DNA of 64,000 bases, from the NCBI GenBank assembly GCA_047967505.1, contig CM106538.1; one strand, written 5' to 3'. The notes beneath the pieces are model-generated. The model worked only from the letters and a program-made list of their open reading frames with translations. It did no database searches and had not been told where the DNA came from. Made by a program: the position numbers and the translations under genes. The stretch comes from Dipteris shenzhenensis. Its lineage: Eukaryota. Below, in pieces: positions 537 to 50,375 of the stretch (positions are counted from its first letter, which is position 1; the number at the start of each line of letters is the position of its first letter).

Positions 537-540
537 AATT

Positions 541-566
541 AACACTTATTTCATTAATTTTGGACT
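541..566 (+). repeat. Terminal inverted repeat AACACTTATTTCATTAATTTTGGACT (copy A)
   Basis: Identical to 28936-28961 and to the reverse complement of 46599-46624. Confidence 0.92.
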
Positions 567-5080: not shown

Positions 5081-5154
5081 TAGTCTCTTCTCAATAATCT
5101 ACTTTATTAATGATTTAAAAATCCAGAACGTGTTTGAAAATTTAATTAGACACT

Positions 5155-6195: not shown

Positions 6196-6272
6196 TGAGT
6201 GTTTTCAAGTAATATCATTTATTTAAGTAATAGTTTTAATTAGAATTCTTAAGTAATAGTGGAATTGATAGT

Positions 6273-7240
6273 TGGGAGGGTGGTAGTGGGAGAAAGGGAG
6301 AGTGGGAAAGTGGAGAAAGGGAGTGTGGGAGGGTGGTAGTGGGAGAAAAGGAGAGTGGGAGAGGGAGTGGGAATGGGGGCGGTGGGGGTGGGGGTGGGAG
6401 GATGGGAGTGGGAGTGGGAGAGGGAGTGGGAATGGGGGAGGTGGGGGTGGGGGTGGGAGAATGGGAGTGGGAGTGGGAGAGGGAGTGGGAATGGGGGAGG
6501 TGGGGGTGGGGGTGGGAGAATGGGAGTGGGAGTGGGAGTGGGAGAGGGAGTGGGAATGGGGGAGGTGGGGGTGGGGTGAGGGTGGGAGGATGGGAGTGGG
6601 AGTGGGAGGGGTGGGGAGTGGGAGTGGGAGGATGGGAGTGGGAATGGGGGAGGTGGGGGTGGAAGTGGGAGGGGTGAGGTGGGAGGATGGGAGTGGGAAT
6701 GGGGGAGGTGGGGGTGGAAATGGGAGGGGTGGGGTGGGAGGATGGGGGAGGGAGTGGGAGTGGGGGAGGTGGGGGGGGTGGGAAAATGGGAGTGGGAGTG
6801 GGAATGGGGGAGGTGGGGGGGTGGGAAAATGGGAGTGGGAGTGGGAGTGGGAGAGGGAGTGGGAGGATGGGAGTGGGAGGGGTGAGGTGGGAGGATAAGG
6901 GTGGGAGAGTGGGAGTGGGAGTGGGAATGGGGGGGGAGGGGTGGGGGTGGGAGGATGGGAGTGGGAGTGAGAGGTGTAGGTGGGAGGATGGGAGTGGGTG
7001 GGAGAATGGGAGTGGGAGTGGGAGTGGGAATGGGGGAGGTGGGGGTGGGGTGAGGGTGGGAGTGGGAGGGGTGGGGTGGGAGGGGTCGGGTGGGAGAGGG
7101 AGTGGGAATGGGGAAGGTGAAAGAATGGGCGTGGGCGTGGGAGTGAGAATGGGGGAGGTGGGGTGGGAGGATGGGGGTGGGAGTGGGAGTGGGAATGGGG
7201 TGGGAGTGGGAATGGGGTGGGAGGATGGGAGTGGGTGGGA
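6273..7240 (+). repeat. G-rich (GGGAGT/GGGGT/GGGAAT)n array, G-quadruplex-prone
   Basis: Continuous G-tracts of 3 or more separated by 1-4 nt loops. Confidence 0.93.
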
Positions 7241-7320
7241 GAGAGAGAGAAGATAATCTAATAGAGAGGCCAATGGGAGAGGAGATAATGTTATAGAAGG
7301 ACCAATGAGAGAGAAGCACT

Positions 7321-7463
7321 TAAAACCCTAGTTTTTCTTATATATACTCTCCTTCTCTCATTGTTTCTCTCATTTCAACAAGGAAGAGCAAGAGGAGAAG
7401 CAAAAAGAGGAGGAAGAGCAAAAGCAAGCACAAGCATCGATTTCAACTTTTTTCCAGGTACTT
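7321..7463 (+). promoter_or_regulatory. Putative core promoter and non-coding first exon facing the cargo gene (counterpart in copy B about 40930-41080, minus strand)
   Basis: Telo-box AAACCCTA (7323), TATATATA (about 7339), a pyrimidine patch, then a CAG|GTACTT donor-like site at 7457/7458. Conserved in both copies. Confidence 0.45.
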
Positions 7464-7499
7464 TTTTTAAAATTTGTATTCTTTGAAATTTTATTATAG

Positions 7500-9900: not shown

Positions 9901-10765
9901 AATTTAGAGAGGGAGGACACGAGAAAGTACGATCGAGATAGAAAATCTTACCAATGAAGAGGAGAAGTGAGTGGGCGACGATCGAGACAAGATAAAGGAG
10001 CTACGATCAATGAGGCATATGAGAGGAGATTGGTATGTGATTTAGTCGAAACTTAAACAAACAAAACTATAAACCTTGGTGTTTGATGAAAATTTAGAGA
10101 GGAAGGGCACAAGAGAAAGTACGATCGAGATAAAAAATCTTACCAATGAGGAGAAAAAATGAGTGGGCAACGATCAAGAAGAGATAAAGGAGAGATGTTT
10201 TGATGGAAGAATTTGGGAGCTACGATCAATGAGGCATATTAGAGGAGATTGGTGTGTGATTTAGTCGAAACTTAAACAAACAAAACTATAAACCTTGGTG
10301 TTTGAAAAGAGAAACGTGTGGAAACTAGAATTTCAAATTTCCCGCCTTTTTTAAAACTATGAATCCTTGTGTTTGAAAAGATAAACGTGTGAAAACTTGA
10401 AAATTGTGATAAAAGACAACCTTGTGTTTCAAAAGACAAACGCGTGGATGTGAAAATTGTGATAAAAGACAACCTTGTGTTTCAAAAGACAAACGCGTGG
10501 ATGTGAAAAGACAAATGTATGCTAAAAGCAAAACTTGTAGAAACTTGAATTTTAAATTTTTCTTTGTTTTTGAATTTAAAATGAGTTTCACTTTCATTTT
10601 TAATTTACTAGTTTAATTTAGACTATAATGCATTTTGTTTTGGAATATAAAAAGTATAATTTTAATTTTATTACATTTTAAATTAAAATTTTAAAAGTAG
10701 TTTAACTTACATTCGTTATTATTACTTTAATTTATTTCTTTTTAGGGAGAATTAATATATTCTTC

Positions 10766-11053
10766 TAGGTAAATATTAAATTTTTAATTTTAAGTCTTGT
10801 TTTCTTTATTTTACGTTATTTTTTCATAAACTTTAAGTTAAACTACTTTATAGTTTTTATTATTTAAATTCAAATTTATTAAGATTTTAACTTCTTATTA
10901 ATGTGAATGTAGGTAAATATTAAATTTTTAATTTTAAGTCTTGTTTTCTTTATTTTACGTTATTTTTTCATAAACTTTAAGTTAAACTACTTTATAGTCT
11001 TTATTATTTAAATTCAAATTTATTAAGATTTTAACTTCTTATTAATGTGAATG
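10766..11053. repeat. AT-rich tandem duplication (2 x about 144 bp), specific to copy A
   Basis: TAGGTAAATATTAAATTTTT...AATGTGAATG occurs twice here and once in copy B (about 37690-37835). Confidence 0.8.
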
Positions 11054-12082
11054 TTCAATTCTTATGAGTTGTAAGTAAATTAGTTTTTGAAAATATAAAT
11101 TTTATCTTTTTTAAAATGAGAAGGGGAAGGGAGAGAGAGAGAAGGGGGGGGCCACTGCCACGGCAGCGAGAGAGAATGGGGGGGGAGAGAGAGAGAAAGG
11201 GGTGGGAGGATGGGAGTGGGAGAGGGAGTGGGAATGGGGAAGGTGAAAGAATGGACGTGGGCATGGGAGTGAGAATGGGGAAGGTGGGGTGGGAGGATGG
11301 GGGCGGCAGCGAGAGAGAAGGGGGGGGAGAGAAGGGGGGGAGAGAGAGAGAAAGGGGTGTGAGTTTAAAAAAGATAAAATAGAAATTTTATCTTTTTTAA
11401 ACTCACAACCTTAGTGTATTAAAAAGAATAATGGAAAATATATTATTTTTTTCTTTTAATTCGCAACCTAAGGATATTAAAAAGAACAATGGAAAAGAAA
11501 TTATTTCTTGCTTTTCTTCGCTTCGACGGTTGGTGTAGTCTAGATTAGCATAGATTAGTTTGTCCTTAGAGGAGAGAACTCCAAAAAAACCAATCAAAGC
11601 CATGCTCAAAATTTCCCGACTAGTTCCTAATCGGAGTCAGTCCATTCGTTCACATTCGGTTTCACAGTCACAACAACCCTACCATTTAAGCAACGATTAA
11701 GGTTTTTAAACTTTCAAGATGATTGAAAGTTGTATCAGTGGACATGACAGATTAGACTTATATCAGTTGCGGGAGTTGACAGAGCATTTTGCACTTATAT
11801 ATGACAGACTTCAAATTTGTATTCAGAGATCATTGTAAATCCTTATTTTTTTTCACATTTATGCTCTAAGCCTTGTAAAGCCTTTTAGGCTATTCCCAAA
11901 GCATTTATGCTCTAAGCCTTGTAAAGCCTTTTAGGCTATTCCCAAAGCATGAAATTGATACTTATATGATTGGGAAGAATAAAAACTTGAGGTGTATTAA
12001 TGGGACTCATTGTACTTTTGATTTTTCAAAGTAATTGTAGTTTGTCAAAGTACTTAAAATTTGTGTTGTGCTTGAATACAGG

Positions 12083-12614
12083 ATGGATCTTGAGGCTACA
12101 GCATTTGTCAATGGTATGACACTGAAATACAATGGAAGAATTTATGCCTCACAAACTGGACAGTTGTTGACACAACAAAGAAAGCATGGTTCTTGGTCTT
12201 AAGTAAAGGAAATCTCATTCTAGTGATGAAAAAGAGAGAGTTGGAGAAAGATGAGTGCACATCAAATGTATCTTTCTCAAAGAGCAATTTGATTCAAGGG
12301 GGCACCTTAGTAGGAATAAAAATTGAAAAAGACAGCCGTACAATGATGATTTACACAAAGTCAAGAATGAGCAACAGATTGTTTCTTCTTTCTAAGAAAG
12401 ATGCAATGCACTTTGTGATGCCGCCGCCAAAAGCACCTAGATTTCCTGAATTGGTTCCTGCATTGGAGATCCTTCAACATGTGTGGGAGGAATTTCCCAT
12501 TGAGGAAGCAAGAAAAATGCAGTCAAAGATTATCCTTGAATACTTTCAGGGTGTCATCCAACAAGGTTCAACTTCATTGGAGGGACCTAAGGTGCAAGAA
12601 TCCACACATGAGAA
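12083..12614 (+). pseudogene. 5' fragment of the cargo gene in copy A
   Basis: MDLEATAFVNG...LQHVWEEFPIEEARKMQSK...STHE matches 36909-36368. It has a 10-bp deletion near 12148 relative to copy B and is truncated by copia. Confidence 0.85.
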
Positions 12615-18222: not shown

Positions 18223-18235
18223 TGGTATCAGAGCC
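18223..18235 (+). promoter_or_regulatory. Primer-binding site complementary to the initiator tRNA-Met 3' end
   Basis: TGGTATCAGAGCC directly after the 5' LTR. Confidence 0.92.
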
Positions 18236-28149: not shown

Positions 28150-28935
28150 CATACATAGTTCAAAACTGGGGAGGACAACAATAGCCAAACATGAATCAAG
28201 CATGCAATTACTATGGGGAAGATGGCCATAGACAAGGTCCACAATGTGAGCTATGGTGCAAACATAGAGAAGAAAGAGGAATCCTAATTATCCAATACAA
28301 TGCAAGGGGAAACTTGAATCCTCCACAACAACCACTAGTAGGTGTAAACATGATCATTCTACAACCAATTATTGAAGATCCCAAGGAGAGTTTACATCTA
28401 AAAGATGTTCAGAAGGAAAAAATAGTACATATTACTCAGCAAAACACATTATTTCTTGGAGTACAAAGTAATTGCACAACATCGAGCAGCAACATAGCTG
28501 GGATAAAAGAACCTAAGGCAACTATAAAGACAATGGTAATCACAAGGTCAAAGGGAGAAAAACCCCTAGCACGACTGGGAGAAACCCTAAAAAATAAAAT
28601 CAAACCAATTGATTGGGTCGAGCAAGAAAAAGTGAGAAACCAAGCTCTAGAACAAATCCTAGAAATCAATGCATCCAAGGAGGCAAACGAGGCACAATTA
28701 CATAGAAAAGGCAAAGCCAAATCAGTTCCAACTACACTTTGACAACATTTCGACTACAAGCAGAAAGATGTGTGGCAAAGAATTACTAAAACACAAAAGG
28801 ATGGCAAAGGTGATGGATACGCCAAAATGACATATCGTAAGGGGGGAGCACAAGACACATTTGATGTACCAAAAGAAAGCCAGAGCCCAAACCACGACAA
28901 CATAGGCTCCTCAGGCAGAGAGTAAATTTCCAATC
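28150..28935 (+). pseudogene. Ty3/Gypsy-like gag C-terminal remnant (left flank of the TIR element)
   Basis: Degenerate knuckle CNYYGEDGHRQGPQC and VITRSK motif. It appears to continue after 46628 into a retroviral-type protease. Confidence 0.55.
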
Positions 28936-28961
28936 AACACTTATTTCATTAATTTTGGACT
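28936..28961 (+). repeat. Left TIR of copy B
   Basis: AACACTTATTTCATTAATTTTGGACT preceded by AATC. Confidence 0.92.
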
Positions 28962-29477
28962 TGTCAATGTACAAATTCATTTTTACATATACTTTTGGAC
29001 TAGTTTTCAGATAAAATTTAAGAAAAACCCAATCTTCAAAGCACATATAAAAACATAAAAACAAGCATTTTTATATATTTTTTTTAAGGACATGAAACTA
29101 AAATTATAAAATTTAACGCAGCCTAGATAAGTTACATGAAAAAATAAGATTCGGTTGTTGTAAACTCTCTTAATATTTAATGGTGTTAATAAACACCTTC
29201 AAAAGTTAAGCCTGAGATAAGTTACACAAAAAAGAGTGGTTCATTAATTGTAAACTCTCTTTATATTTATAATAGTGTTTAGGAAACACTTTCAAAAGTT
29301 ACAAGTGGAAGTAGCAAACTCTCACAATATTTATAATTTAGGTGTTGAAAAACACCAAAAGTTACAATAAGACTCTCATTGGAAGGCAAATTACACCAAA
29401 AGTTACAATAAGACTCTCACTGGATGGCAAATTTATTTTCAAGACTACAGCCATTCAATTTGATGAATTTTCTATTT

Positions 29478-29912
29478 TCAAGTCTTTAGCCTAAATTCAA
29501 CCCATTCAAGAGCTGAGCTCATCTCATCCTCATCGATGTAGTTAAAATTATAGAAGAGAAGTAAGGATTGATGAATTTTCTCCTACATAACACTTTGTTT
29601 CTTCCGAATGGCTTACGCTTCCTCGGGGGAAAATCTTCCATAACGAGCCACACACGAAGATATCTCACTTTGAAAGTCTACCAACTCTCTCCTATATGAC
29701 TGCAATTTATCTATTTCATTAGTAGCCATACTTATTTTTCTTTCCTCTTCCTTCTCTAAGCCCTTCTGACAAGCAAAGTCATCCTTCTCGTACTGGGTTA
29801 ATGGAGCTGGATTTTGCTTTCTCTCCTCTCTCTTTCCTTGGTTCTCGGCAATCCATTCTTTGATGCTGCTAATGGCTTGCTCGACAGAATCGATTACCTT
29901 AAAAAGATCCAT
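29478..29912 (-). pseudogene. Small predicted helical/coiled-coil protein (about 144 aa) with two in-frame stops
   Basis: MDLFKVIDSVEQAISSIKEWI...RFSPEEA*AIRKKQSVM*EKIHQSLLLFYNFNYIDEDEMSSALEWVEFRLKT*, all in one frame; both stops can be read as C>T changes from Gln codons. TATAAAT lies about 450 bp upstream (30359-30365). Confidence 0.5.
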
Positions 29913-29919
29913 AATGGCT

Positions 29920-30920
29920 GCAAGATGAAAGGAGTATGCTTGAGAAGAGGAGGTAAGGCTACGGGCAAGATGGAAGGAGCAAGCTTGAGGAGAGGAGTAA
30001 GGTAAGAAGAGTAAAGTGGAAGAAGTGTGGAGAGGAGTAAGGTAAGAAGAGTAAAGTGGAAGAAGTTTTTGCTGCGGGTGAGATATAGAAGACGAACTAG
30101 GTGAGGAAGGTAACGAGAGTGAGGAAAGATATAGAAGGAGGTGAGGAAGGTAACGAGAGTGAGGAAGGTAACTAGAGGAGGTAAGGCAAGATGAAAGGAG
30201 TATGCTTGAGAAGAGGAGGCAAGGCTGCGGGCAAGATGGAAGGAGCAAGCTTGAGGAGAGGAAGGAGCAAGCTTGAGGAGAGGAGTAAGGTAAGAAGAGC
30301 AAAGTGGAAGAAGTGTTTGCTGCAGGTGAGATATAGAAGATGAACGACTACTAGGGGATTTATAGAACTACAGATTCATAATGTGGGATGAAAGATTTAG
30401 AATAAAGAATTGGTAGAGGCTGAGATGACTAGATGCAAGACTGTAATGCGAGACATTATAAAATAAAATGATGGGATGCAAGACCGTAATGGGAGACATT
30501 TGAGACATGTAAGACAGTGATAGTACATTGAAATCTATAAAATAAAATGATGGAACACAAGAATGATATAATTAATAGAATCTCATCATGAGATATTCTT
30601 TTAATATAATATAAGTTAGTAATTATTAGAATCTCATCATGAGATATTCTTTTAATATAATATAAGTTAGACTTGCTGATGCAAGACCGTAATGCGAGAC
30701 ATGTGAGATGATAGATTTTGAGTACATTGAAATCTATAAAATAAAGTGATGGAACATAAGAATGATATAATTATTAGATTCTCAACATAAGATATTTATT
30801 GTACATAATAAATGATAGATTTTGAGTACATTGAAATCTATAAAATAAAGTCATGGAACATAAGAATGATATAATTATTAGATTCTCATCATAAGATATT
30901 TATTGTACATAATAAATTAG
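29920..30920. repeat. Short tandem and dispersed duplications (GAG/AAG-rich units, then AT-rich units)
   Basis: Repeated GGAGAGGAGTAAGGTAAGAAGAG, GAGGAAGGTAACGAGAGT, TAGAATCTCATCATGAGATATTC and GTACATTGAAATCTATAAAATAAA blocks. Confidence 0.75.
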
Positions 30921-31076
30921 ACTTTCAAAAAAGTAAAACCTAATGTATTGTAATGAATAAATATCATAAAATATCCTAATGTATTGCAACATTTAACATA
31001 AGTTTAAAAAACACTATCATTAATCAATACAAACAAGATAAAAATCTTCAAGGACTCATGTTTCTTTCTACATGTT

Positions 31077-34000
31077 TTACAACTGAATAGAGTCTGATGA
31101 GTCCTCTTGAGGCTGTGATTCTCTAAGAGTACATTGAGTCTCTACTTGTGTGGATGGTGTACATTGAGATTCTACTTCTGGTGCAATTGGGATAGACTTA
31201 ATCTCTTCCTCCTTTACAAGATGTGATGTTGTAGATGCACATTGAGTCTCCACTTCTTGTGTAGGGAGAATGCATTGAGTCTCTAATTCAAGTGTAGACT
31301 GTAATGCTTCTACTTGAGGCTGTGATACAGAAGGAGACTGAATTGTCTCTTCTTTTTCTTTGGCTCCCTCAGGTTCTTCATTGAGTCCATCATGTTGTTT
31401 CCCAATGGTAGCAGTTAGATAGTGAACAGTCTTAGCCACAAAATCTTGTAGCTCGAGCTTGGTATATGCTTCTATTGAGACATGTTCAAAAATTTCATTG
31501 AGATACAACATGAAGTTGTAGGCAATTCTCCACCCACTACTAAACATGTCTTTCTGCTCCACTGCGAGGCGTGTCTGGAAATTTGGTTGGTCTTGATGCT
31601 CCCTGATTTTCATAATCGCAGAAACTAACTTGTTTGCAAACCTGTCCATCATGACATATGACAAAGTGAATTTGTGTAGTAAATAGTAAGATGCATGTTC
31701 ATAATGATATGATAAAAGAACACTTACCTGAACACCCCGTGAAAGCCTGTAAATGAGTTGACAAACCAACAATGGTTGTCATCAAGATCCCATACTATCA
31801 GGCTCCAATGTGAACTACATCACCAATAAAGAGCGATAAGATTTATCACAATATTAAGTATTAATTGACACAATATTATAAATAAGAGAGTAAAAGAAAG
31901 ATTGAGACCATACTTACTTCTCATAGTATGGCATAAAGACAACTAGTATGCCATCCAAGTCTAAAGGTTGTAGAATTGAACAAACATCATCTACTGTCTT
32001 CTTGGTATCACTAAGTACAGCTGAAAGAAGAGAATCGAGCATACAGACGTGATTCTGTACTGATCTAGGAAAGTGAGATATAACCGTACTACTGCAGCAA
32101 TAAATAAACAAATGTTAGAAGCAGATTGAATCAAATGATTGAAGTATCAAGCCAAGAGATGTTCATATCAAACCTGAGGATGGCCATCATGACTTTGTCA
32201 TTAGCCTCTTTCAAAGGGTCAGAGAGGATTGTAACTTCCTCACTACCAAAAGTCAAAACACGAGGTTGCTTGCTAATGATGACCCTAACCTCAGAAGAGC
32301 TCCCCATTTCGTCCAATATAGCGGTTACATTAGGACAACTTATGGGTGTAGCAACCAATGTTTCCTCTGAATGCTCCACCACGTTATTAATAAATGCCTT
32401 AATGATAGATGACATAAATGCATATAGATGCAAGTCTGTATATGTCGACAATGAGGTTTCATCGCCTCTCAAATTAAAAATTTGAGCAAGGAGCAGTTAT
32501 ATCTGACTCTCCACCCACAACTGTGGTCATCATTCTGCTTCGCTGCAGGGCATGTTACATACTCTATTTGATCTTCCAAGTCACCCTCCATTTGCATAAG
32601 TGCATCTATAGCACCTACCAACTTTCGAGCAGATCTACACATCAAAATAGAAAACATAAATGAATGTGCGCATTGCATAGGATGCATCTCATTGACATAA
32701 TTATGACACAAGTAGGTTATACTTACTCTGACACACTGCCATGGATAGATGCTATTGAATTGACAAAGAAGCATTGCTTGGCTAAGATGTCCACAATTAC
32801 CAAGCTCCAATGCAAGCTGCATTATCAATTAAGAATAATTATTATTTGATATAATCCTCCACAATGTAAGAGATAAGCTAGGTAGGGATTGATACTCACT
32901 CCTCGTGATATGCAGTAAAGATAACTCGCGCCGCAGTCAAATCAATAGGTTGCAACCACTTAAAAACATCATCTATGGTCTTCTGCTTATTGCTAAGTAC
33001 ACTAGAAACAAGAGGATCGACCATATATGCACATCTTTGTATATATAAGGGAAGCTGTTGTAAAACCATACTGCAATAAAAAGAAAAGAATATTAGTTCA
33101 TTTGATCTAATGGAAATACAAAAGCATAAAGTCAGTAAAAAGTTTGTGTCAAACCTGAGGATGGCTATTATGACCTTGTCATTAACCTCTTTCTTGAAGT
33201 TTACGAGGATTGAAATGTCCTATTCATCGAATCGAAAAGTAAGAGGTTGTTCTCGAACTTGAAACCTAACTTGAAATGACTTCTCCATTTGCTGCAAGGT
33301 ATGATTATTTCTAGAGTCATCCGATGGATAGCCAGAGTAGCTTTGCTTTCTTGAGATGAGCTTTCTATATTCTCTACTCCAGCTATGCCCTCCTCATCCT
33401 CCTCCTCTCCCTTCTCCTATAAAAGGATAAAATAATTATGAGATTCAAAATTTTAAATTAATTATAAATTTAAAAAGACCTTTAAATGAATAAAGAAAAT
33501 TAAACATAAGTTTTCATACCTCTACATATCTTCGTGGTCTTTTTATGTAACCTTCAGAGGCAAGGTCAGTGTCATATCCATCTTCTTCTGCTTCCTTGCT
33601 ATCGCTGGTGTCCTCACTATTATATCCAGAGCTTTGATCATTTTCATCATCTTTCTTGCTCTCATCATACATGATCATCTCTATGTCAGCATCCTCTTCA
33701 TGTGAGATCGGACCTTTCTTATCAAACTTTATTGTGAGAGAAGCCACGGTATCAAGGTATTCCAAGCAAGCAAGGCTCTCAATAATATTTACATTGTGTC
33801 CTTTTCTAATAAGAGCTTCAAACAGATGTCCCATTCGACACAATGTGACTTCCCATCCGGACGGTAGCAAAAATTCCATCATACTAATTAAAAGATCAGC
33901 ACTTTTTGCTGGCCTTTCATAGTGATTTGCGTTGCGATGGAGGGGACTTGGATCTTCATGCTCTTCCAGCAGTAGTTGCAATCTCTTTGCATTCCCTCTT

Positions 34001-36909
34001 ATATTGTTTTGTAAGGAGTGATCATTGTAAGGGCTCTTCATGCACAAGAAAAAGGTTTCTAGACTCTGTATCTTGAGACCGCATTCTCTCTTGTCCCTTT
34101 TTCTTGAGTATATGCCATTGTAAATCTTAAGCTCATTGCCATATTGTTTTTCTAGGGTAGCAGACATTTGTTCCTTGTCATCTTTATCAGCAAATATGAC
34201 TATATTGCATTGTCCCACTCTACCAATGGTGGTATGTAATATTCTGTCAAGGAGTTGACGAATGTCATCCGGTGATATTTCATAGACAAAGAAAAGCTGA
34301 GGTCTCTCCCAAGCAGTGTCGTCGGACAAAAATTCACTCAATGAAACTCCCTTGCACTCAACACTCTTTCCAGACTCTGAAATGATTTCATGTATGAAAA
34401 AAAAGCCCTTGTTCAAAGTTTTTTCTTTTCTGAGAGTGTGCTTATTGATGACTTTTTGTGCATATGCATACACATTTTCCGGAATGTCACTTCTCATAGA
34501 GGGAGTAATTTCAGATCCATCATCTTCTACCTTCACCCATTTATGCGCCCAAGCCTTCTGTTTAGCTGACGGTAAAGCTGATGCCATCTGCCTCACAATG
34601 TTATGATCAATTTTACATTGGCTAATTGGAATATTTTTTTCTCCCAATAAATATTCAATTGCACTCTTTACTGCATCACGCTTGACCTGTTGGATGATGC
34701 AATCTTCCATGCAATGATCTTTATCCTTTTTGCCAAAAAACCATTCTTTGGACATTAATTTCTCTGCAGCAAGACTTGCGTATTTGTCTGGTAGGTTTCT
34801 TAAAGGCCTCCACTTTTGAGCTGTCATCTCTTTTTTCTCAATCTTCTTTGCCTTCTCTTTAATCAATGATGGAGCCTCATATGTGACATCTCCTTTCTCA
34901 CATGCAAGACACACGTCTTTGATCTGATGAAAAACTTCATCACTACGGAAAAGTATGCTTGTGTAGTCTTGATACCTATCCCTTACTGTCTTAAAGCTTG
35001 TAATCACCTCTGCTCTTTCCTGCTTTCCCCTTGGTACAATGGCACTCAAGCATGTGTAGAAGTCAACAAGATTATCCGCTTCCACTTTAGTTGCAGTTCT
35101 TTTGAGAGTGGTCAAAGGAGAATTAAAAGTTTTCCATATGGTCCTAGCTTTGAGCAACATCTCTGAAGTGGAGGTGATTTTTCGTAGTGCATAAATGTCA
35201 TGATTAAGTCTTTCCGACTCAATCAAATATTTTTTCTCGTTCTTGAAGATACAAATGCATGCAGAATAGTAGTGAAATTGAGGCACACTCGCGAAGGTTT
35301 GATAAGTAATTTCTCCTTTCTTGTATGCATCTCTAGAGTGCTCATTACAAGCATAGGCATAGTGCTGACCATCTATTGCCTCAAATGTACAATGAGCTAA
35401 GAAATTTCTCTTGGCATCCCTTATATGTCGTTCTGGATCATTCACTGAACTCTGTCCTTCTTGAAGTTAGGGAACTTGTTTTCCGAGGAACTTAGTGAAT
35501 TGCATCTCAAAATCCATAGGCTGAGAGAAATTGATGGATTGACTATAATCTCCCATGACTGGCCAAAATGTTCTTGGACGGAGTACCAAATTAGAAAAAA
35601 CTGGTTTTTTTCCATCAATCAAAGCCTGAAAAATCTTTTCAGCATAGATTGTATCTAAGGTCCTGCTATTGGTGAAGACACTTGCTTTGACCACTGTTGA
35701 AGCATGTATAACTTGAGTCTTCTGGCCCCATATATATCCTGGATCCTCATCTGTCACAGCCTCATTCAAGCGAAGATTTAGATTCTTCATTGATAACATT
35801 TCTGCTTCTAGATCTGACTCCATTTCAAGACCCTCCGCATCCTCTTCATGTTCTTCCTCTTCTCTTCTTTGCACTTTCTTTGTATATGAACGACCTCTTT
35901 TTCCAGTTATAGGACTTGGAACTGTAGCTCGTGAAGTACTTGCCTTTTGCATTTGACGTCGATATTTATTTTTTAGGGGCTCAATGTGAACTGCTTTAGA
36001 TCGCCCTACTTCTTCTTCTATTGCCTCAACTTCAGGTATACTTAAGGGCTTCACTTGTTCTGTTATTCCATCAACTTCATGAGTTACACCATCTAAGTGA
36101 GTAATACCATGAACAAGAGATGTGTGTGCATGTCCTGTCTTATCTGATGCATGTCGTGTCTCACTCAATTCAATTTCTGTCTGAGATGCATGTGCATGTC
36201 CGGTCTCCACCAATTCAATTCCTGTCTCAGATGTAGATCCCTTGTAAGCATCCACGTGTACAAGACCCTCATCCATTGCTACAATGTGTTCTGTCTCATC
36301 CACTCCACTTCCTCTCTCATTTGTATTACCATGAACCAGGTCTACATGGCGTGTCTCATCACTTCCTTTCTCATGTGTGGATTCTTGCACCTTAGGTCCC
36401 TCCAATGAAGTTGAACCTTGTTCGATGACACCCTGAAAGTATTCAAGGATAATCTTTGACTGCATTTTTCTTGCTTCCTCAATGGGAAATTCCTCTCACA
36501 CATGTTGAAGAATCTCCAATGCAGGAACCAATTCAGGAAATCTAGGTGCTTTTGGCGGCGGCATCACAAAGTGCATTGCATCTTTCTTAGAAAGAAGAAA
36601 CGATCTGTTGCTCATTCTTGACTTTGTGTAAATCATCATTGTACTGCTGTCTTTTTCAATTTTTATTCCTACTAAGGTGCCCCCTTGAATCAAATTGCTC
36701 TTTGAGAAAGATACATTTGATGCCCACTCATCTTTCTCCAACTCTCTCTTTGTCATCACTAGAATGAGATTTCCTTTACTTAAGACCAAGAACCATGCTT
36801 TCTTTGTTGTGTCAACAACTGTCCAGTTTGTGAAGTCCTTTGGGGCATAAATTCTTCCATTGTATTTCAGTGTCATACCATTGACAAATGCTGTAGCCTC
36901 AAGATCCAT
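31077..36909 (-). pseudogene. Spliced cargo gene, about 1700 codons: ParB/Srx-like domain, degenerate N4/N6-MTase-like region, two Ulp1/C48 protease domains
   Basis: ORFs 36496-36924, 35467-36465 and 33514-35445 are one frame separated by single stops (copy A has TGG at the first). Seven GT-AG introns follow (33519-33417, 33154-33071, 32899-32817, 32726-32635, 32173-32092, 31917-31815, 31727-31642), joining exons with HWSLVIVD, QNDDHSCG, HWSLIVWD and QKDMFSSG. Two frameshifts (about 33330 and 32490) and one further stop are required. Confidence 0.8.
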
Positions 36910-38679
36910 CCTGTATTCAAGCACAACACAAATTTTAAGTACTTTGACAAACTACAATTACTTTGAAATATCAAAAGTACAATGAGTCCCATTAATACAC
37001 CTCAAGTTTTTATTCTTCCCAATCGTATAAGTATCAATTTCATGCTTTGGGAATAGCCTCAAAGGCTTTACAAGGCTTAGAGCATAAATGCTTTGGGAAT
37101 AGCCTAAAAGGCTTTACAAGGCTTAGAGCATAAATGTGAAAAAAAATAAGGATTTACAATGATCTCTGAATACAAATTTGAAGTCTGTCATATATAAGTG
37201 CAAAATGCTCTGTCAACTCCCGCAACTGATATAAGTGTAAAATGCTCTGTCAACTTCCACAACTGTAATCTGTCATGTCCACTGATACAACTTTCAATCA
37301 TCTTGAAAGTTTAAAAACCTTAATCGTTGCTTAAATGGTAGGGTTGTTGTGACTGTGAAACCGAATGTGAACGAATGGACTGACTCCGATTAGGAACTAG
37401 TCGGGAAATAGTCGGGAAATTTTGAGCATGGCTTTGATTGGTTTTTTTGGAGTTCTCTCCTCTAAGGACAAACTAATCTATGCTAATCTAGACTACACCA
37501 ACCGTCGAAACGAAGAAAAGCAAGAAATAATTTCTTTTCCATTGTTCTTTTTAATATCCTTAGGTTGCGAATTAAAAGCAAAAAATAATCTATTTTCCAT
37601 TATTCTTTTTAATACACTAAGGTTGTGAGTTTAAAAAAGATAAAATTTATATTTTCAAAAACTAATTTACTTACAACTCATAAGAATTGAACATTCACAT
37701 TAATAAGAAGTTAAAATCTTAATAAATTTGAATTTAAATAATAAAAACTATAAAGTAGTTTAACTTAAAGTTTATGAAAAAATAACGTAAAATAAAGAAA
37801 ATAAGACTTAAAATTAAAAATTTAATATTTACCTAGAAGAATATATTAATTCTCCCTAAAAAGAAATAAATTAAAGTAATAATAACGAATGTAAGTTAAA
37901 CTACTTTTAAAATTTTAATTTAAAATGTAATAAAATTAAAATTATACTTTTTATATTCCAAAACAAAATGCATTATAGTCTAAATTAAACTAGTAAATTG
38001 AAAATGAAAGTGAAACTCATTTTAAATTCAAAAACAAAGAAAAATTTAAAATTCAAGTTTCTACAAGTTTTGCTTTTAGCATACATTTGTCTTTTCACAT
38101 CCACGCGTTTGTCTTTTCAAACACAAGGTTGTCTTTTATCACAATTTTCAAGTTTTCACATGTTTATCTTTTCAAACACAAGGATTCATAGTTTAAAAAA
38201 AGGCGGGAAATTTGAAATTCTAGTTTCCACACGTTTCTCTTTTCAAACACCAAGGTTTATAGTTTTGTTTGTTTAAGTTTCGACTAAATCACACACCAAT
38301 CTCCTCTAATATGCCTCATTGATCGTAGCTCCCAAATTCTTCCATCAAAACATCTCTCCTTTATCTCTTCTTGATCGTCGCCCACTCATTTTTTCTCCTC
38401 ATTGGTAAGATTTTCTATCTCGATCGTACTTTCTCTTGTGCCCTTCCTCTCTAAATTTTCATCAAACACCAAGGTTTATAGTTTTGTTTGTTTAAGTTTC
38501 GACTAAATCACACACCAATCTCCTCTCATATGCCTCATTGATCGTAGCTCCTAAATTCTTCCATCAAAACATCTCTCCTTTATCTTTTCTCAATCGTCGC
38601 CCACTCATTTCTCCTCTTCATTGGTAAGATTTTCTATCTTGATCGTACTTTCTCTTGTGTCCTCCCTCTCTAAATTTTC

Positions 38680-38957
38680 ATCTCTCGTCCATCTCTCTCA
38701 CTCTTCTCTCTCTCTCTTTCCTCTCCGCTCTAGTCTACGTTTCCTCTCATCTTAGTCTACTCTCTCCCCTCCTCTTCATTTCCCCTCTCTCTCTCTCTCT
38801 CCCACTCTCTCCTCACCTTTTCTCTCTCTCTCACTTGCGCTCCCCACTCTCTCTCTCACTTGCTGCGGCCTCCCCCCTCTCTCTCTCTCCCCTCCCCTCT
38901 CTCTCTCTCCCCCCCTCTCTCCCTCTCGCTGCCGCAGCAGCGGCCTCCCCCCCTCTC

Positions 38958-38988
<31 letters not shown>

Positions 38989-40890
38989 CCCCCTCCCTCT
39001 CTTTCGCTGCCGCGGCAGCGGCCCCCCCTCTCTCTCTCTCTCTCCCCCCTCTCTCTCGCTACCACGCCTCCCCCCCTTCTCTCTCTCTCCTCCCCTTCTC
39101 TCTTGCTACCACGGGAGCGGCCCCCCCTCTCTCTCTCTCCCTCCCCCTCTCTCTCGCTGCCGCGCCCCCCCTTCTCTCTCCCCCCCCTCCTCTCTCGCTA
39201 CCGCGGCAGCGGCCCCCCCTCCCCTTCTCTCTCTGCCGCCCCCCTCCTCTCCCCCCCTTCTCTCTCTCTCCCCCCTTCTCTCTCACTGCCACGGCAGTGG
39301 CCCCCCCCCTTCTCTCTCTCTCCCTCCCCCTCTCTCTCGCTGCCACGCCCCCCTCCTCTCTCTCTCCCCCCCTCCCCCCCCTCCTCTCCCCCCCCCTTCT
39401 CTCTCTCTCCCCCCCCTTCTCTCTCGTTGCCGCGGCAGCGGCCCCCCCTTCTCTCTCTCTCCCTCCCCCTCTCTCTCGTTGCCGCGCCCCCCACCTCTCT
39501 CTCTCCCCCCCTCCTCTCTCACAGCCGCGGCAGCGGCCCCCTCTCTCTCTCTCCCCTCCCCTCCCCTCCCTCTCTCCCCCCCCTCCCTCTCCCCCCCTCT
39601 CTCCGCTGCCGCGACAGCGGCCTCCCCCCCTCTCTCTCTCTCCTCCCCCCTTTCTCTCCCCCCCTCCTCTCTCGCTGCCGTGGCAGCGGCCCCCCCTCCT
39701 CTCTCTCTCTCCCTCCCCCTCTCTCTCGCTGCCGCATCCCCCCCCTTCTCTCTCTCCCTCCCCTCCTCTCTCGCTGCCGCGGCAGCGGCCCCCCCTCTCT
39801 CTCTCCCCTCCCCTCCCCTCCCTCTCCCCCCTCTCTCTCTCTCCCCCCCTCTCTCTCGCTGCCCCCCCTTCTCTCTCTCCCCCCCCTCCTCTCTCGCTGC
39901 CGCGGCAGCGGCCCCCCCTCTCTCTCTCTCTCCCTCCCCTCTGTCTCACTGCCGCGCCCCCCTTCTCTCTCTCCCCCCCTCCTCTCTCGTTGCCGCGGCA
40001 GCCCCCCCTTCTCTCTCTCTCCCCCCCCTCCTCTCTCGCTGCTGCGACAGCGGCCCCCCCTCTCTCTCCCTCTCCCCCCCCTCCCTCCACTGCCACGGTA
40101 GCGGCCTCCCCCCCCTCTCTCTCTCTCCCCCCCCCTCTCTCTCCCCCCCTCTCTCGCGTTGCCACGCCCCCCCTTCTCTCTCTCCCCCCCTCTCCTCTTT
40201 CGTTGCCGTGGCAGCGGCCCCCCCCTTCTCTCCCTCTCCCCCCCCCCTCCTCTCTCGCTGCCGCGGCAGCTGCACCCCCTCTCTCTCTCTCCCTCCCCCT
40301 CTCTCTCGCTGCCGTGCCCCCTCCCCTTCTCTCTCCCCCCCTCCTCTCTCGCTGTCGCGGCAGCGGCCCTCCCCTCTCTCTCTCCCCTCCCCTCCCCTCC
40401 CTCTCCCCCCCCTCTCTCCGCTGCCGCGGCAGCGGCCTCCCCCCCCTTTCTCTCGTTGCCCCCCCTTCTCTCTCTCCCCCCTCTCCTCCTCTCTCGCTGC
40501 CGCGGCAGCGGCCCCCCCCTCTCTCTCTCTCCCTCCCCCTCTCTCTCGCTGCCGCGCCCCCCCTCCTCTCTGGCTGCCGCCTCTCTCTCTCCCCTCCCCT
40601 CCCTCCCCCCCCCTCCCTCTCCTCCCCTCTCTCCGCTGCCGCGGTAGCGGCCTCCCCCCCTCTCTCTCTCTCCCCCCCCTCGCGGCTTCCCCCCTCTCTC
40701 CCCTCTCTTCCCCCCCCCTCCCCCTTCTCTCCCCTCTCCCTTTCTCTCCCCTCTCTTTCCCCCTCCCTTCTCTCCTCTCTCTCCCTCTCTCTTTCTCTCT
40801 CTCTCTTTTGCTGCCGAGGCAGCAAGACTCTCTCTCTTATAATCTCTCTCTAAAAGTCTTTCCTTCACTTTTCTCTCTCTAAGTTCTCTC
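38680..40890 (-). repeat. CT/C-rich array with the 16-bp palindrome (copy B counterpart of 7500-9900)
   Basis: (CT)n and C-runs with recurring CGCTGCCGCGGCAGCGGC. Confidence 0.93.
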
Positions 40891-41159
40891 TCTATAATAA
40901 AATTTCAAAGAATACAAATTTTAAAAAAAGTACCTGGAAAAAAGTTGAAATCTATGCTTGTGCTTTGTTGTGCTTGCTTTTGCTCTTCCTCCTCTTTTTG
41001 CTTCTCCTCTTGCTCTTCCTTGTTGAAATGAGAGAAACAATGAGAGAAGGAGAGTATATATAAGAAAAACTAGGGTTTTAAGTGCTTCTCTCTCTTGGTC
41101 CTTCTATAACATTATCTCCTCTCCCATTGGCCTCTCTATTAGATTATCTTCTCTCTCTC

Positions 41160-42085
41160 TCCCGCCCACTCCCGTCCTCCCACCCCATTCCCACTCCCAC
41201 CCCCATCCTCCCACCCCACCTCCCCCATTCTCACTCCCACGCCCACGCCCATTCTTTCACCTTCCCCATTCCCACTCCCTCTCCCACTCCCATCCTCCCA
41301 CTCCACCCCTCCCACTCCCACCCTCACCCCCACCTCCCCCATTCCCACTCCCACTCCCACTCCCACTCCCATTCTCCCACCCACTCCCATCCTCCCACCT
41401 CCACCTCTCACTCCCACTCCCATCCTCCCACCCCCACCCCTCCCCCCCCATTCCCACTCCCATTCCCACTCCCACTCCCATTCTCCCACCCTTATCCTCC
41501 CACCTCACCCCTCCCACTCCCATCCTCCCACTCCCTCTCCCACTCCCACTCCCATTTTCCCACCCCCCCACCTCCCCCATTCCCACTCCCTCTCCCACTC
41601 CCACTCCCATTTTCCCACCCCCCCCACCTCCCCCATTCCCACTCCCTCCCCCATCCTCCCACCCCACCCCTCCCACTTCCACCCCCACCTCCCCCATTCC
41701 CACTCCCATCCTCCCACCTCACCCCTCCCACTTCCACCCCCACCTCCCCCATTCCCACTCCCTCTCCCACTCCCATCCTCCCACTCCCACTCCCCACCCC
41801 TCCCACTCCCACTCCCATCCTCCCACCCTCACTCCACCCCCACCTCCCCCATTCCCACTCCCTCTCCCACTCCCACTCCCATTCTCCCACCCCCACCCCC
41901 ACCTCCCCCATTCCCACTCCCTCTCCCACTCCCACTCCCATCCTCCCACCCCCACCCCCACCCCCACCCCCACCGCCCCCATTCCCACTCCCTCTCCCAC
42001 TCTCCCTTTCTCCCACTACCACCCTCCCACACTCCCTTTCTCCACTTTCCCACTCTCCCTTTCTCCCACTACCACCCTCCCAACT
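41160..42085 (-). repeat. (ACTCCC)n array, G-rich on the minus strand (copy B)
   Basis: Reverse-complement counterpart of 6273-7240. Confidence 0.93.
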
Positions 42086-42159
42086 ATCAATTCCACTATT
42101 ACTTATGAATTCTAATTAAAACTATTACTTAAATAAATGATATTACTTGAAAACACTCA

Positions 42160-43140
42160 TAGGATTTAAGGTTTAGGATTTCGTGGTTTGGGTTTAGGAT
42201 TTGGGGTTTGGTGAGTTAAGGTTTAGGGTTTAGGGTTTAGGGTTTGTGAGTAAGGAATTAGGGTTTGTGAGTTAGGGTTAGGGTTTAGGGTTTGTAAGTT
42301 AGGGTTTAGGGTTTGGTGGTTTGGATTTAGGATTTGGGGGTAGGGTTTAGGGTTTAAGATTTGGGAGTTAGGGTTTAGGGTTAGGGTTTAGAGTTTGGTG
42401 GTTTGGGTTTAGGGGGTAGGGTTTAGGGTTTAGGGTTTAGGGGTTAGGGTTTAGGATTTAGGGTTTAGGGTTTGGGGGTTAGGGTTTAGGGTTTAGGGTT
42501 TGGGGGTTAGGGTTTAGGGTTTGGGAGTTAGAGTTTAAGGTTTAGGGTTTAGGGTTTGGGGTTTAGGGTTTAGGGTTTAGGGTTTAGGGTTTGGGAGTTA
42601 GGGATTAGGGTTTGGGAGTTAGGGTTTAGGGTTTGGGGGTTAGGGTTTAGAGTTTAGGGTTTGGGGGTTAGGGTTTAGGGTTTAGGGTTTAGGGTTTAGG
42701 GTTTAGGAGTTAGGGTTTAGGGTTTAGGGTTTGGGAGTTAGGGTTTAGGGTTTGGGGGTTAGGGTGGGTTTGGGGGTTAGGGTTAAGGGTTTAGGGTTTA
42801 GGGTTTAGGAGTTAGGGTTTAGGGTTTAGGGTTTAGGGTTTGGGAGTTAGGGTTTAGGGTTTGGGAATTAGGGTTTAGGGTTTGGGGGTTAGAATTTAGG
42901 GTTTAGGGTTTAGGGTTTGGGAGTTAGGGTTTGGGGTCTGGGGGTTAGGGTTTAGGGTTTAGGGTTTGGGGGTTAGGGTTTAGGGTTTAGGGTTTGGGAG
43001 TTAGGGTTTAGGGCTTAGGGTTTAGGGTTGTTATTGGTTAGGGTTGAGGGTTGAGGGTTCAGGGTTTAGGGTTGTTTTGGTTTACGGTTTAGGGTTTAGG
43101 GTTTAGGGTTGTTATTGGTTTACGGTTGTTATTGGTTAGT
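42160..43140 (+). repeat. Interstitial telomeric (TTTAGGG)n array, internal to copy B
   Basis: About 1 kb of GGGTTTA with TTTGGGAGTTAGGG and TTTGGGGGTTAGGG variants. Confidence 0.97.
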
Positions 43141-43265
43141 GTGTAATTAAATTTTCAAACAAGTTCTAGATTTTTAAATCATTAATAAAGTAGATTATTG
43201 AGAAGAGACTAATGTTCTTTATAATGGTTGTTACAGCTTGTTTGCAAAGGAAACTCACAAAGGAG

Positions 43266-45931
43266 ATGGCTACAAAATTTATTCCGGGGATGGAGGTGAT
43301 TTTATGTTTCAAAAGAGAAGTAGTTGCATTTGCTACAATCCATGAAAGTGATCCAAATTCTATTTGTCACTCTAGAAGACTTGGCGAAGATAAGGTGGCG
43401 GTTATCGTATCAAGGATTCTTAGTGCACATGTTGAGCTAAAGCATAAGTGTGGGGATATGGAAATCCTTGGAGATGTTATGCCCTATAATACTTCCAACA
43501 AAGCATTTATTACATGGGACAGAGATGAGACTTATCCAACACATGTCATCAGGAATACAAAGTGCATATCTTTGGATTTTAGAGTGGGAGATATTTTACA
43601 AATGTTATCATTTTCAAATAAGTATGTAGCAGAAGGTCAAGTCTTGGGATTTGAACAAGTTGAACACTGGACATTTGCGCAGATGAGAATTCAAAAAGTT
43701 ACTGATGATGGTATGGATGATAACTCAATGTCATTGGATGGTCCCTACTATGAGGTAGGTAAGGATTTGAGATGGAGCATGCAATTTTTAAAGATTGGAA
43801 AGACTCGGCATGTGGTTTTTAATGATAAACATAATGTATACTACAACATCAAAGAATTGAAAGAATATGCCAATGTACCAAGCTCTATTCCTTCAGAGAT
43901 GGATGATTCCAATGCACTCAACTATAGCACTGACGTCTTATCAGAAGTCGATGAGTTCATTGGTACCGAGAAAGAAAAATATTTCACAAGTGATGCCTTA
44001 TCCGGGGTGGATGAGTTCATGCACATTGAGAAGCAAAGATGTCAAAAGTGTTATATTTTCAAGCATGGATGGCTTCATGGATACTGATAAAGTACTTGGA
44101 GTCAAAGCAGGTAACTATGGAATTATGGAAATCATGCACGATAGTATAATGAGTGATGTTATCTCTGGAGTAGAGGAGTTTTGAGACTATGGAGTTATGA
44201 AATCCATAGAAAGTGCATCAATGAGCGATGTTCTCTCAGGAATAGATGAGTTTGAAGATCATTCTGGACACTCTATCACCACTGACTATGGAGTTATGAA
44301 ATCCATAGAAAGTGCATCAATGAGTGATGTTCTCTCAGGAATAGATGAGTTTGAAGATCATTCGGGACACTCTAATGCCATTGTGACAAGTGGTTCTACG
44401 ATTGTATCAAAAGTAGGGATGAAGCTATTTCTCACCCAAATGAGTACATGTGCATTATTGTAGATGGTATGGATCAAAATACAACAACATTACCTCGATT
44501 CGTTAACACTCCACCTAAGCTACAAGGCAAATACTTTTTAAAGACACATCTATGTGGAGTGTTAGTGCACGGATTTAAGTTTTTTGCAGACATATGGATT
44601 GATTCCTTGCATCTACACGATAGCAATCAAGTTGTAACATCCGTTATGAAGGCAATTCACAATGTACATGCAGAAAAAGGTCGCCTACCAGCAACTTTGA
44701 GAGTACAAGCAGACAATTGTGGACGACAGAATAAGAATGTACTCTTCTTTGCATTTTGCTCAATGCTAATCGCTCATAGAATCTTCAATGAGATTGAAGT
44801 TGGGTTTTTGTTGGTTGGGCACACACATGAGGATATCGATCAGGTATTTAGCACAGTTTCAAGAGAACTAAAACACAAGGACATGGAGACAATGGATGAC
44901 TTGATAAGAAAATGTGGGAGGCAAGTTGGTGGCCGTAAGGAAGGAACAATATGCTCAATGGTTGAGAGGATGTATGATTGGAAGAGCTTTATTCTACCTT
45001 TCATACAAAAAGGTGGTGATGCCCTGATTGGTCATAGCGCTCCACACTATTTTCGATTTTTCTTTAAGGATGAAAAACCAGTGATGCAATGGCAACACTA
45101 TTCTGTTGATACAAAATGGGAACCTGAAGAACCTTACTCTCTCTTAACTTCAATCCCGAGCAAAGAAATGCATCCAAATGGGCTCCTATAAAAGAATTCA
45201 GCGAGAAATCCAAAGGTGAAATAGAAGGCTTAAAAGCTTTTATTGCATACAAAGAGGAAATGCTCCGGAGATTTCCTGATTGGAAGCCCTCTTGGAAGGA
45301 ACACACTACTGTTGTAATTAGCAAGACCTACCAATTGATAAAGGACCTTGCAAAAATGCGAGAAGATGATATTAAGGCAGAACGGCCTTTATTTTGGCCA
45401 AATGTTGGTAATGACTTGCGTCCAGCATGTGGTCTCTTTGAAAATGAGTTTGAATCGTTGCTCCCACGTCCATATTGTGGACCCATGAAGAGAGAGTTTA
45501 TGCCACAAATAGACATAGATGTCCATTGTTTTGTTGCAGTTCGACCATCGGATGATGAACATGAGAATGTGAAGTTTTGGGTTGCGAAAGTAGTTGACGT
45601 GAGCATGGATGACCGGGGGAGAGCTAGAACATTTACAGCGGTATGGTATGAGCCAAGGGGCAGGAAGGAGAACCAAGATAACAATACATTGTATAGTAGT
45701 TGTTTGAAAAAGGAATGGGTCCCAAACCATGAAGCAATTTCAAGACTTTCCACAGAGACAGTCATAGTATCTTGGAAATCAAGGTCAAAGAAAACAAAGA
45801 AGCACATGGGGTATGATGTAGAAGACAAAATAAAATTACCGCAACCAATTATTACGCACATTACAGAGTTCACAAAGATGCTCGCCCGGGAGGAAGTAGA
45901 AGGAGATAGTGCAAATGAAGAATGCCCATGA
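43266..45931 (+). pseudogene. Disabled copy of the Sola-like transposase
   Basis: Near-identical to 1316-5026 but with a 5-bp deletion (about 44030), a TGA (about 44182), a deletion of about 1.04 kb at about 44422 (equivalent to copy A 2826-3864) and a 1-bp deletion (about 45178). Confidence 0.92.
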
Positions 45932-46598
45932 TAACACCATTCAAATATCGAGAAAGAGTGAAGGTGGTGGTGGTTGTCAGATGAGAGTGAATGAAGATGG
46001 CACCCAAGCGACAAGTGACGACAAAAAGGACATTCTGAACAAGCAAATGTTTGGATCGCTCATTTCTGTGATCATGATAGAAAAGGACATTCAAACAAGC
46101 AAATGTTTGGATCGCCCATTTGTACTAAACTCATTGCAAAGGAAAAATTAAATTATTGAAAAGGCCACAGGAGATCCTTTGTACAAAGACTCATCCAGAG
46201 CAATATTTGTTGTAAAACTTATGACATGATAATGTAAAATTGCAAGCATAGCTATTGCTATTTTTTGGAGTACAAAAGAGGCTTCCATCATGTCTCATGT
46301 CTATATAAACCTTTTAATTTCGTTGTGAATCCTCAATAGCATGGTTTTTCATGGATTTAAACTAATAACTCGGATTTTTTATTTTAAGAATATGATTCTT
46401 ATAAACAAGAAATACAAATTTAGGATTTAATAGTAGTTTTTGCATTATTTGTACAACATTGTAGAGAGATATTTTGAAATGTCTTATGTGAAAATGATAG
46501 TGCCAGAAAGTAAACTTTTGATTCTCGAATGACAGTTTCATAAAGTAAACTTTTCATTTGGGAAGGATTTTAAGGAATAGTCCAAAAGTAGACATATG

Positions 46599-46624
46599 AG
46601 TCCAAAATTAATGAAATAAGTGTT
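46599..46624 (-). repeat. Right TIR of copy B
   Basis: AGTCCAAAATTAATGAAATAAGTGTT followed by AATC. Confidence 0.92.
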
Positions 46625-46628
46625 AATC

Positions 46629-50300: not shown

Positions 50301-50375
50301 TATAAGGCAAGGTTGGTAACCAAGGGTTTTAAGCAGGAGAAGGGTATTGAATTTGATGAGATCTTTTCCTCAGTG
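47360..50375 (+). mobile_element. Ty1/copia family 3 fragment (related to family 2): leader, gag, PR, IN and start of RT; no LTR seen
   Basis: MASASENALFNIEKLDGTNF from 47628, WILDSGASFH, HSDVCGP, LRTDNGGE and CKWVYKLK, with many stops. Ends at DEIFSSV. Left boundary approximate. Confidence 0.88.

Follow-up and report, generated by a model that had tools for sequence, protein, structure and literature searches.

Sola-type elements are, to our knowledge, among the least studied DNA transposons. The superfamily is said to have been defined by Bao and colleagues in 2009 by a DDD transposase and 4-bp target-site duplications (TSDs), with members in animals, plants and protists. An AWWT target is the hallmark of Sola1 (PMC3845634), Sola1 is listed for a moss in a table of plant transposable elements (PMC9033089), and curated bivalve Sola1 elements have a mean length of 5445 bp (PMC10294476). 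The DNA considered here, hereafter the window, is a stretch of 64,000 nucleotides of contig CM106538.1 (assembly GCA_047967505.1) from Dipteris shenzhenensis, which is plain eukaryotic DNA without any N. The segment 28936-46624 of the window (copy 2) is a real, unusually large cut-and-paste DNA transposon, of which a second copy lies at 541-12614 (copy 1). Copy 2 probably (roughly 0.8) belongs to a young, multi-copy family of very large Sola-like elements that carry an accessory, or cargo, gene, and is itself non-autonomous. A preliminary description of this DNA had proposed a large transposon with terminal inverted repeats (TIRs), a 4-bp TSD, a transposase, a cargo gene and internal arrays, an outline that the present analysis supports.

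Boundaries of the element

Copy 2 is bounded by perfect 26-bp TIRs, as had been claimed: the pattern has three exact matches in the window, compared with 0.00 expected from 100 shuffles, and the third of them (541-566) is the start of copy 1. The claimed TSD can be read directly as the identical tetranucleotide AATC on both sides of copy 2. The features of the ends are as follows.

28932..28935, no strand: left TSD, AATC, read directly, the same as 46625-46628
28936..28961, plus strand: left 26-bp TIR, exact pattern match
28993..29001, plus strand: left subterminal copy of TTTTGGACT, candidate transposase-binding motif, with a second copy inside the TIR at 28953-28961
46579..46587, minus strand: subterminal TTTTGGACT motif of the right end, from a 9-mer search
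46599..46624, minus strand: right 26-bp TIR, exact pattern match
46625..46628, no strand: right TSD, AATC, equal to the left AATC

The 9-mer TTTTGGACT occurs seven times in the window compared with 1.26 expected, and six of the seven occurrences lie in element ends, two per end. We infer that this putative end motif is bound by the transposase, which, having bound the copies repeated in both ends, would excise the element and reinsert it with a 4-bp staggered cut. Copy 2 measures 17.7 kb; with nothing deleted, a copy would reach about 18.7 kb.

The transposase

43194..45931, plus strand: broken transposase gene of copy 2, with the DUF7869 core at 44376-45191 (Pfam PF25273, E 1.9e-51)
1316..5098, minus strand: transposase of copy 1, an intact frame of 1260 codons in which DUF7869 occupies residues 792-985 (E 1.1e-50)

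The transposase gene that the preliminary description placed at one end of the element is present there, but it is broken in copy 2 and forms an intact frame in copy 1. Compared with copy 1, the gene in copy 2 has lost 5, 1039 and 1 bp and is stopped at codon 332; because the frame of copy 1 is intact while copy 2 has these losses, copy 2 is a deletion derivative, and judged by its frames it is non-autonomous. The uninterrupted frame of copy 1 also implies that the gene needs no introns. The 28 substitutions between the copies in the transposase comprise 21 nonsynonymous and 6 synonymous codons, versus a neutral expectation of about 3.9:1, so that the differences look neutral-like, with the deletions sitting in copy 2. 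An intact frame in an otherwise truncated copy 1 suggests very recent activity of the family.

The predicted protein, about 1250 aa, consists of a Cys-rich N-terminal half and the DUF7869 core. Its relatives were collected by a word-indexed protein search of proteins of 476-2000 aa, in which 58 of 376 candidates matched at E <= 0.001, all of them with PF25273 and the best with 48% identity at full coverage. Most are metagenomic, and the named sources are Branchiostoma, Strongylocentrotus, bivalves, a nemertean and Chromera. Metagenome contigs were pattern-scanned as well, yielding 297 confirmed relatives, of which 80 loci (24-41% identity) were kept; the N-terminal 450 residues of the transposase had no tblastn match in these 80 loci. 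That half of the protein contains a 99-bp (33-aa) tandem repeat and about six acidic SDVLSGxDEF-like motifs (3913-4173 in copy 1, 44185-44374 in copy 2). One oyster protein (P0032) has an OTU cysteine-protease domain (PF02338) fused to DUF7869, a second link of this transposase family with ubiquitin-like proteases.

In a 42-sequence alignment of the core (add 499 for positions in the full 1260-codon frame), D273, D276, H392-T393-H394 and D396 are invariant, and D356, E395 and D398 are conserved at 90% or more. The candidate catalytic residues are D772, D855 and D895 (or E894): in the HTHED motif D396 is invariant and E395 is present in about 90%, which by alignment is compatible with either DDD or DDE. 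The fold predicted for residues 500-1020 of the copy 1 transposase has a predicted local distance difference test score (pLDDT) of 84.4, and by VIA residues 214-433 of the model align with the Mos1 catalytic domain (Z 10.4, root-mean-square deviation 3.1, 167 aligned residues). Further structural matches are Metnase (Z 10.2) and retroviral integrases (Z 9.3-10.0), followed by IstA, TnsB and Sleeping Beauty, and Foldseek also matched the model to IstA (E 1.9e-4). Because it is the cores of DDE transposases and integrases that match best in structure, DUF7869 is, on the predicted model, a DDE/D (RNase H-like) transposase core, and this domain thereby gains a putative function as a catalytic core.

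Copies of the family and their surroundings

541..12614, minus strand: copy 1, which runs from the transposase end through the arrays into the first part of the cargo gene and adjoins a 5'-truncated Copia element at 12615

Copy 1 is inverted and truncated relative to copy 2, of which it matches 36368-46624; identity is 98.7% in 1905 bp from the transposase region and 95-99% elsewhere in unique parts. This match and the array counts given below bear out the earlier claim of a second copy with the same arrays. The flanks, compared with the copies masked, share nothing, and the two copies are therefore separate insertions; an origin by inverted segmental duplication is out. On their outer sides the two inverted copies are flanked by AATT (537-540) and AATC (46625-46628), which may hint at an AAT-type target or be due to chance.

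Whether other copies carry the cargo gene had been posed as a check, and public DNA contigs do contain the cargo region. A word search of public sequencing runs with 29000-38600 found three holders in two studies, none of the six runs found being recorded as RNA, a result that is silent on expression; the contigs of four runs (X1-X4) were then compared with 28600-38700. Run X1 gave 76 matching contig records (34 at 99% identity or more, 33 at 95-99% and 9 at 90-95%) and run X2 gave 66. Together the matches in X1 and X2 span the whole cargo half at 90-99+%, the flank bin being almost without depth, and in one X1 contig a foreign flank stops exactly at 28936, marking another insertion site, so that three different sites are known (copy 2, copy 1 and the X1 contig). 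From these contig matches it follows that the family is multi-copy, that the TIR is its boundary, and that other copies have the cargo region. The arrays are known outside copy 2 from copy 1 alone, the contig comparison having stopped at 38700. Contigs of these runs include uncovered parts and weak joints, an example being X3, which skips 30975-37928 with just 23 letters on one side of the joint; apparent deletion derivatives are treated as unproven.

Two further observations concern the composition of the family. The summed depth of X1 contigs is about 82 at 29948-30284, a 40-bp repeat region near the left end, versus about 18 over the cargo gene; numerous shorter derivatives may contain this piece as well, or it may be a repeat in its own right. 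Contigs from X1, X2 and X4 end at 33986-34024 with the same foreign sequences on either side, and this shared breakpoint suggests a subfamily with an insertion or replacement within the cargo gene.

The surroundings had been described as a Gypsy remnant into which the element had inserted, but no Gypsy domain was found in the 20 flanking and neighbouring open reading frames scanned, and with Copia domains alone present the Gypsy reading is ruled out. The retroelement domains beside the element in those 20 frames are those of Ty1/Copia (Retrotran_gag_2, Pol_BBD, gag_pre-integrs and rve), and RVT_2, of the Ty1/Copia type, occurs elsewhere in the window. The element adjoins Copia sequence: a Copia gag begins about 0.9 kb to the right of the copy 2 insertion, and copy 1 abuts at 12614 a Copia element without its 5' end. 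Ty1/Copia copies are densely nested in the segments 12615-23538 and 47500-64000: there are at least five, with 93-97% identity to each other, some of them truncated and one a reverse-oriented insertion at 50329-53088.

The accessory gene

33514..36951, minus strand: main cargo frame of 1143 codons, interrupted by in-frame stops (36496-36498, 35467-35469) before its final stop at 33514-33516
31077..33219, minus strand: two tandem Ulp1-like (C48-like) modules in several frames, from by-eye motifs and a lead in the Atlas language-model search
29613..30347, minus strand: small open frame that overlaps short tandem repeats, 244 codons from stop to stop and about 100 if counted from its first Met

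In place of the spliced gene of about 1700 codons that had been proposed, copy 2 has a 1143-codon frame with two in-frame stops, beyond which pieces continue in other frames. The first of these stops is TGG (W) in copy 1, which is damaged further upstream; the cargo genes of both copies have accordingly decayed, in different places. Because both genes of copy 2 are decayed, it would need transposase in trans, and it would be mobile only if intact copies supplied it. A contig of X1 runs over 33339-36912 with 46 differences and no gaps. A GT..AG pair at the final stop of the frame (about 33519 to about 33417) makes a plausible intron by eye; greedy GT-AG exon chaining was rejected as evidence of splicing, since it can bridge any stop. 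The break near 32483 is a defect of copy 2 and not an intron, because X1 copies have seven extra bases behind 32483, which join the frames 32828-32469 and 32496-32131.

A 650-codon part of the cargo frame had ten relatives at E <= 0.001 in a HMMER search of 1.84 billion representatives, mostly fragments, including a hypothetical protein of the lycophyte Diphasiastrum complanatum, and the cargo frame shares with them the conserved motif EPVDGQH..AC. This part had no match in Pfam, where all 12 of the 12 family members likewise had none, or in PHROGs, and the best hit of a PDB profile search (E 0.088) was unrelated. An AlphaFold model built with 12 sequences reached a pLDDT of 45, too poor for a fold search. 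In the Atlas search the top two clusters were Streptophyta hypothetical proteins (0.95 and 0.93), followed at lead-level scores of 0.77-0.79 by phage ParB_N and N6_N4_Mtase clusters (profiles PF02195 and PF01555). A DGQH motif can be seen by eye, as can a C-terminal stretch resembling the motif-I region of S-adenosylmethionine (AdoMet) binding, the glycine-rich motif not being kept.

Of the two downstream modules, the first (33219-32131) has an H..D..Q..C pattern and the second (about 32300-31077) is degenerate, with Ser replacing Cys. In the translation of 32469-32828, read by eye, H is followed by D 20 residues on, and Q by C 6 residues on, a spacing compared with that of Ulp1. The top three Atlas clusters for a downstream frame, whose pieces are fragmentary, were Peptidase_C48 (PF02902) at 0.87, below the 0.9 level. 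None of the four downstream frames had a Pfam match, and no homologue of the Ulp1-like frame was found, a PDB sequence search giving one chance match (E 0.76). The ParB, methyltransferase and Ulp1 labels of the preliminary description thus find no support in profiles or folds and correspond to Atlas scores of 0.77-0.87 and by-eye motifs. The accessory protein is large, belongs to an almost unrepresented family and probably ends in Ulp1-like protease modules.

Arrays between the divergent genes

36952..38759, no strand: AT-rich unique spacer upstream of the cargo gene, with 46-, 58- and 219-bp tandem duplications, common to copy 1
38760..40850, no strand: CT-rich array (GA on the minus strand), 60% C and 27% T, with GC-rich spacers of the type GCTGCCGCGGCAGC
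41165..42085, minus strand: array of G-rich hexamers, reading CTCCCA on the plus strand and containing G-quadruplex (G4) motifs, from motif counts
42160..43110, plus strand: degenerate plant-type telomere-like array, about 136 TAGGGTT units, from repeat analysis

The frames confirm that the two genes are divergent, with the arrays, 4.35 kb in total, between their 5' ends. The accessory gene would be transcribed away from the transposase gene, and the arrays, which are fast-evolving and of low complexity, may be part of an upstream region common to both. The telomeric, G4 and GAGA arrays reported previously are present in both copies, the telomeric one being degenerate. Each copy has the 7-bp telomere-type repeat (136 and 146 units), the C-rich/G4 array and the CT/GA array. 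There are 40 G4 motifs in the block 38700-42150 of copy 2, on the minus strand, and 54 in the block of copy 1, while the rest of the window examined outside both blocks has 0; runs of (GA)>=4 number 58 and 56 inside the blocks versus 0-5 elsewhere. In the telomere-like tract of copy 2, 51 perfect TTTAGGG units account for 38% of the length, and over the two copies the fraction is 38-39% with a longest perfect run of 4. Identity of the arrays between the copies is 82-85%, with many indels, versus 95-99% in unique DNA.

Placement of the family and possible role of its arrays

Those of the 80 metagenome loci that are at least 2.5 kb long were scanned for inverted repeats bracketing the transposase match together with flanking direct repeats.

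L036: element of 3.7 kb, TIR of 26 bp, flanking repeat AAAA
L042: element of 9.66 kb (90-9746), TIR of 130 bp, flanking repeat CATT
L013/L014: element of 2.1 kb, TIR of 17 bp, flanking repeat GAAA
L006: element of 1.9 kb, arms of 16 bp, flanking repeat of 2 bp
L037: element of 3.1 kb, arms of 17 bp, flanking repeat of 3 bp

The many inverted pairs in L040, L046, L047 and L074 represent palindromes or low-complexity repeats inside the loci. A 4-bp TSD is found in copy 2 and in three distant DUF7869 relatives (L036, L042 and L013/L014), and the element fits Sola in its 4-bp TSD without a TTAA target, in an acid triad that may be DDD, and in its host range. Several points count against a Sola-like family of the kind described here. 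The flanking repeats of L006 and L037 are shorter than 4 bp; the assignment to Sola sets TSD length and acid pattern beside a description of that superfamily; of the three visible sites, AATC at copy 2, AATT at the one end that copy 1 retains and ...TGAA in the X1 contig, one fits AWWT; and among the 80 loci cargo relatives number 0 and loci with telomere-type repeats 1. Because they are nearly absent from those loci, the cargo gene and the arrays are features of this family and not of the wider clade. What holds of the earlier Sola-like assignment is the 4-bp TSD and the D..D..(HTHxD) pattern in an RNase H-like fold; the AWWT preference of Sola1 is not borne out by the visible sites, a very small sample. 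That DUF7869 transposases instead constitute a separate, unnamed DDE/D superfamily, also with 4-bp duplications, is unlikely, given that the definition of Sola agrees with what is seen here in acid pattern, in TSD and in the organisms that have relatives (Branchiostoma, sea urchin, bivalves and Chromera). Such a superfamily would agree with structure searches that return generic DDE cores alone, with a literature in which, as far as searched, no mention of DUF7869 or PF25273 was found, and with TIR and target sites that differ from the Sola1 values in PMC3845634.

As for the arrays, they may be passive, a reading given a little less than even odds: they would be simple-sequence expansions plus an interstitial telomere-like tract, arising for example from telomerase-assisted break repair and hitch-hiking in a long spacer, and the cargo gene, unconnected with the arrays, would be either a normal second gene of the transposon or one captured from the host. 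The low fraction of perfect telomere units, the divergence of the arrays compared with unique DNA, and transposase relatives without such arrays (a telomere-type run in one locus of 80) favour this, as does the 9.66-kb L042, whose large, unrelated extra frames indicate that extra genes are not unique to this element. It sits less easily with three array types making up a quarter of the element and kept in both copies, or with a strict strand asymmetry and a very high G4 density compared with none in the remaining 57 kb. The preliminary description had suggested a chromatin-control or anti-silencing module of the element's own. In a VANC-like form of it, a cargo protein with DNA-binding (ParB-like), methyltransferase-like and Ulp1-like parts would act on the telomere-box, GA and G4 arrays and so keep both divergent promoters active. 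The arrays lie exactly between the divergent genes in both copies, and the Atlas leads (0.77-0.79 for ParB_N/N6_N4_Mtase, 0.87 for Peptidase_C48) point in the same direction. VANC proteins bind the noncoding regions of their own elements (PMC5735166, PMC10398659), and in Arabidopsis TRB proteins, which recruit PRC2, bind to teloboxes (PMC11287191). Such a module is nevertheless improbable: none of its three domain labels has profile or sequence support, the cargo model is unusable, there is no VANC homology and the transposase is not that of a Mutator-like element (MULE), copies just 1-5% apart have common arrays by descent and not by selection, and the arrays are degenerate and length-variable in the manner of neutral simple repeats. 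Little chance is likewise given to a variant in which a ParB/methyltransferase-like protein with a SUMO-protease-like tail would act with kilobase arrays of telobox, GA and G-quadruplex DNA, motif types through which plant TRB and BPC factors set Polycomb states, to control the promoters, shielding the element from silencing or parking it reversibly. The comparison with VANDAL/VANC and with telobox, TRB and PRC2 is a testable idea and not evidence.

Comparison with known systems

A literature search, with Repbase and Dfam outside its scope, found neither DUF7869 nor PF25273 described, nor any Sola element carrying Ulp1 or cargo. The nearest counterpart among the metagenome loci is L042, which shares PF25273 (E 2.9e-36) and a 4-bp TSD (CATT) and likewise has extra frames in divergent orientation, 808 and 381 codons long. 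It differs in its 130-bp TIRs and in extra frames that are unrelated to the cargo gene (BLASTP E 1.3; hhalign probability 2.9%) and belong to no family; a Tudor_5-like frame lies downstream of its transposase (30.6 bits versus the Pfam cut-off of 31), and the locus showed no arrays of simple repeats. Phage and plasmid fusions of ParB_N with N6_N4 methyltransferase resemble the cargo protein in the Atlas scores of 0.77-0.79 and, by eye, in DGQH, whereas the cargo protein is far longer and eukaryotic and has no Pfam, PHROGs or PDB sequence match.

VANDAL/Kaonashi-type MULEs of Arabidopsis are likewise multi-gene TIR transposons with an accessory gene and repeats in noncoding DNA, and the Ulp1-like domain here may parallel the Ulp1-like genes there. 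The present element differs in having a DUF7869 transposase without a MULE domain and a TSD of 4 bp, MULE TSDs being about 9 bp, and in its kilobase-long low-complexity arrays as opposed to the short binding-motif repeats of VANDAL/VANC; no VANC-like match turned up in any search of the element's proteins. If the arrays and the cargo protein cooperate, the family would constitute a second independent transposon-encoded chromatin-control system, after VANDAL/VANC, and, should that doubtful reading prove true, giant Sola-like transposons of the green lineage would have gained a chromatin module of their own.

With Sola the element has in common TIR-bounded cut-and-paste transposition, a 4-bp TSD, a D..D..D/E pattern in an RNase H-like core, and transposase relatives in animals and protists. 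It differs in a second large gene, in 4.35 kb of arrays, in target sites that do not show AWWT, and in a length of 17.7 kb, about three times the bivalve Sola1 mean. The intact 1260-codon frame and the defined ends (26-bp TIR, 9-bp motif and 4-bp TSD) offer a directly testable transposition system, and if the family belongs to Sola, its size of about 18 kb and its nearly orphan accessory gene of 1100+ codons would widen the known content of that superfamily.

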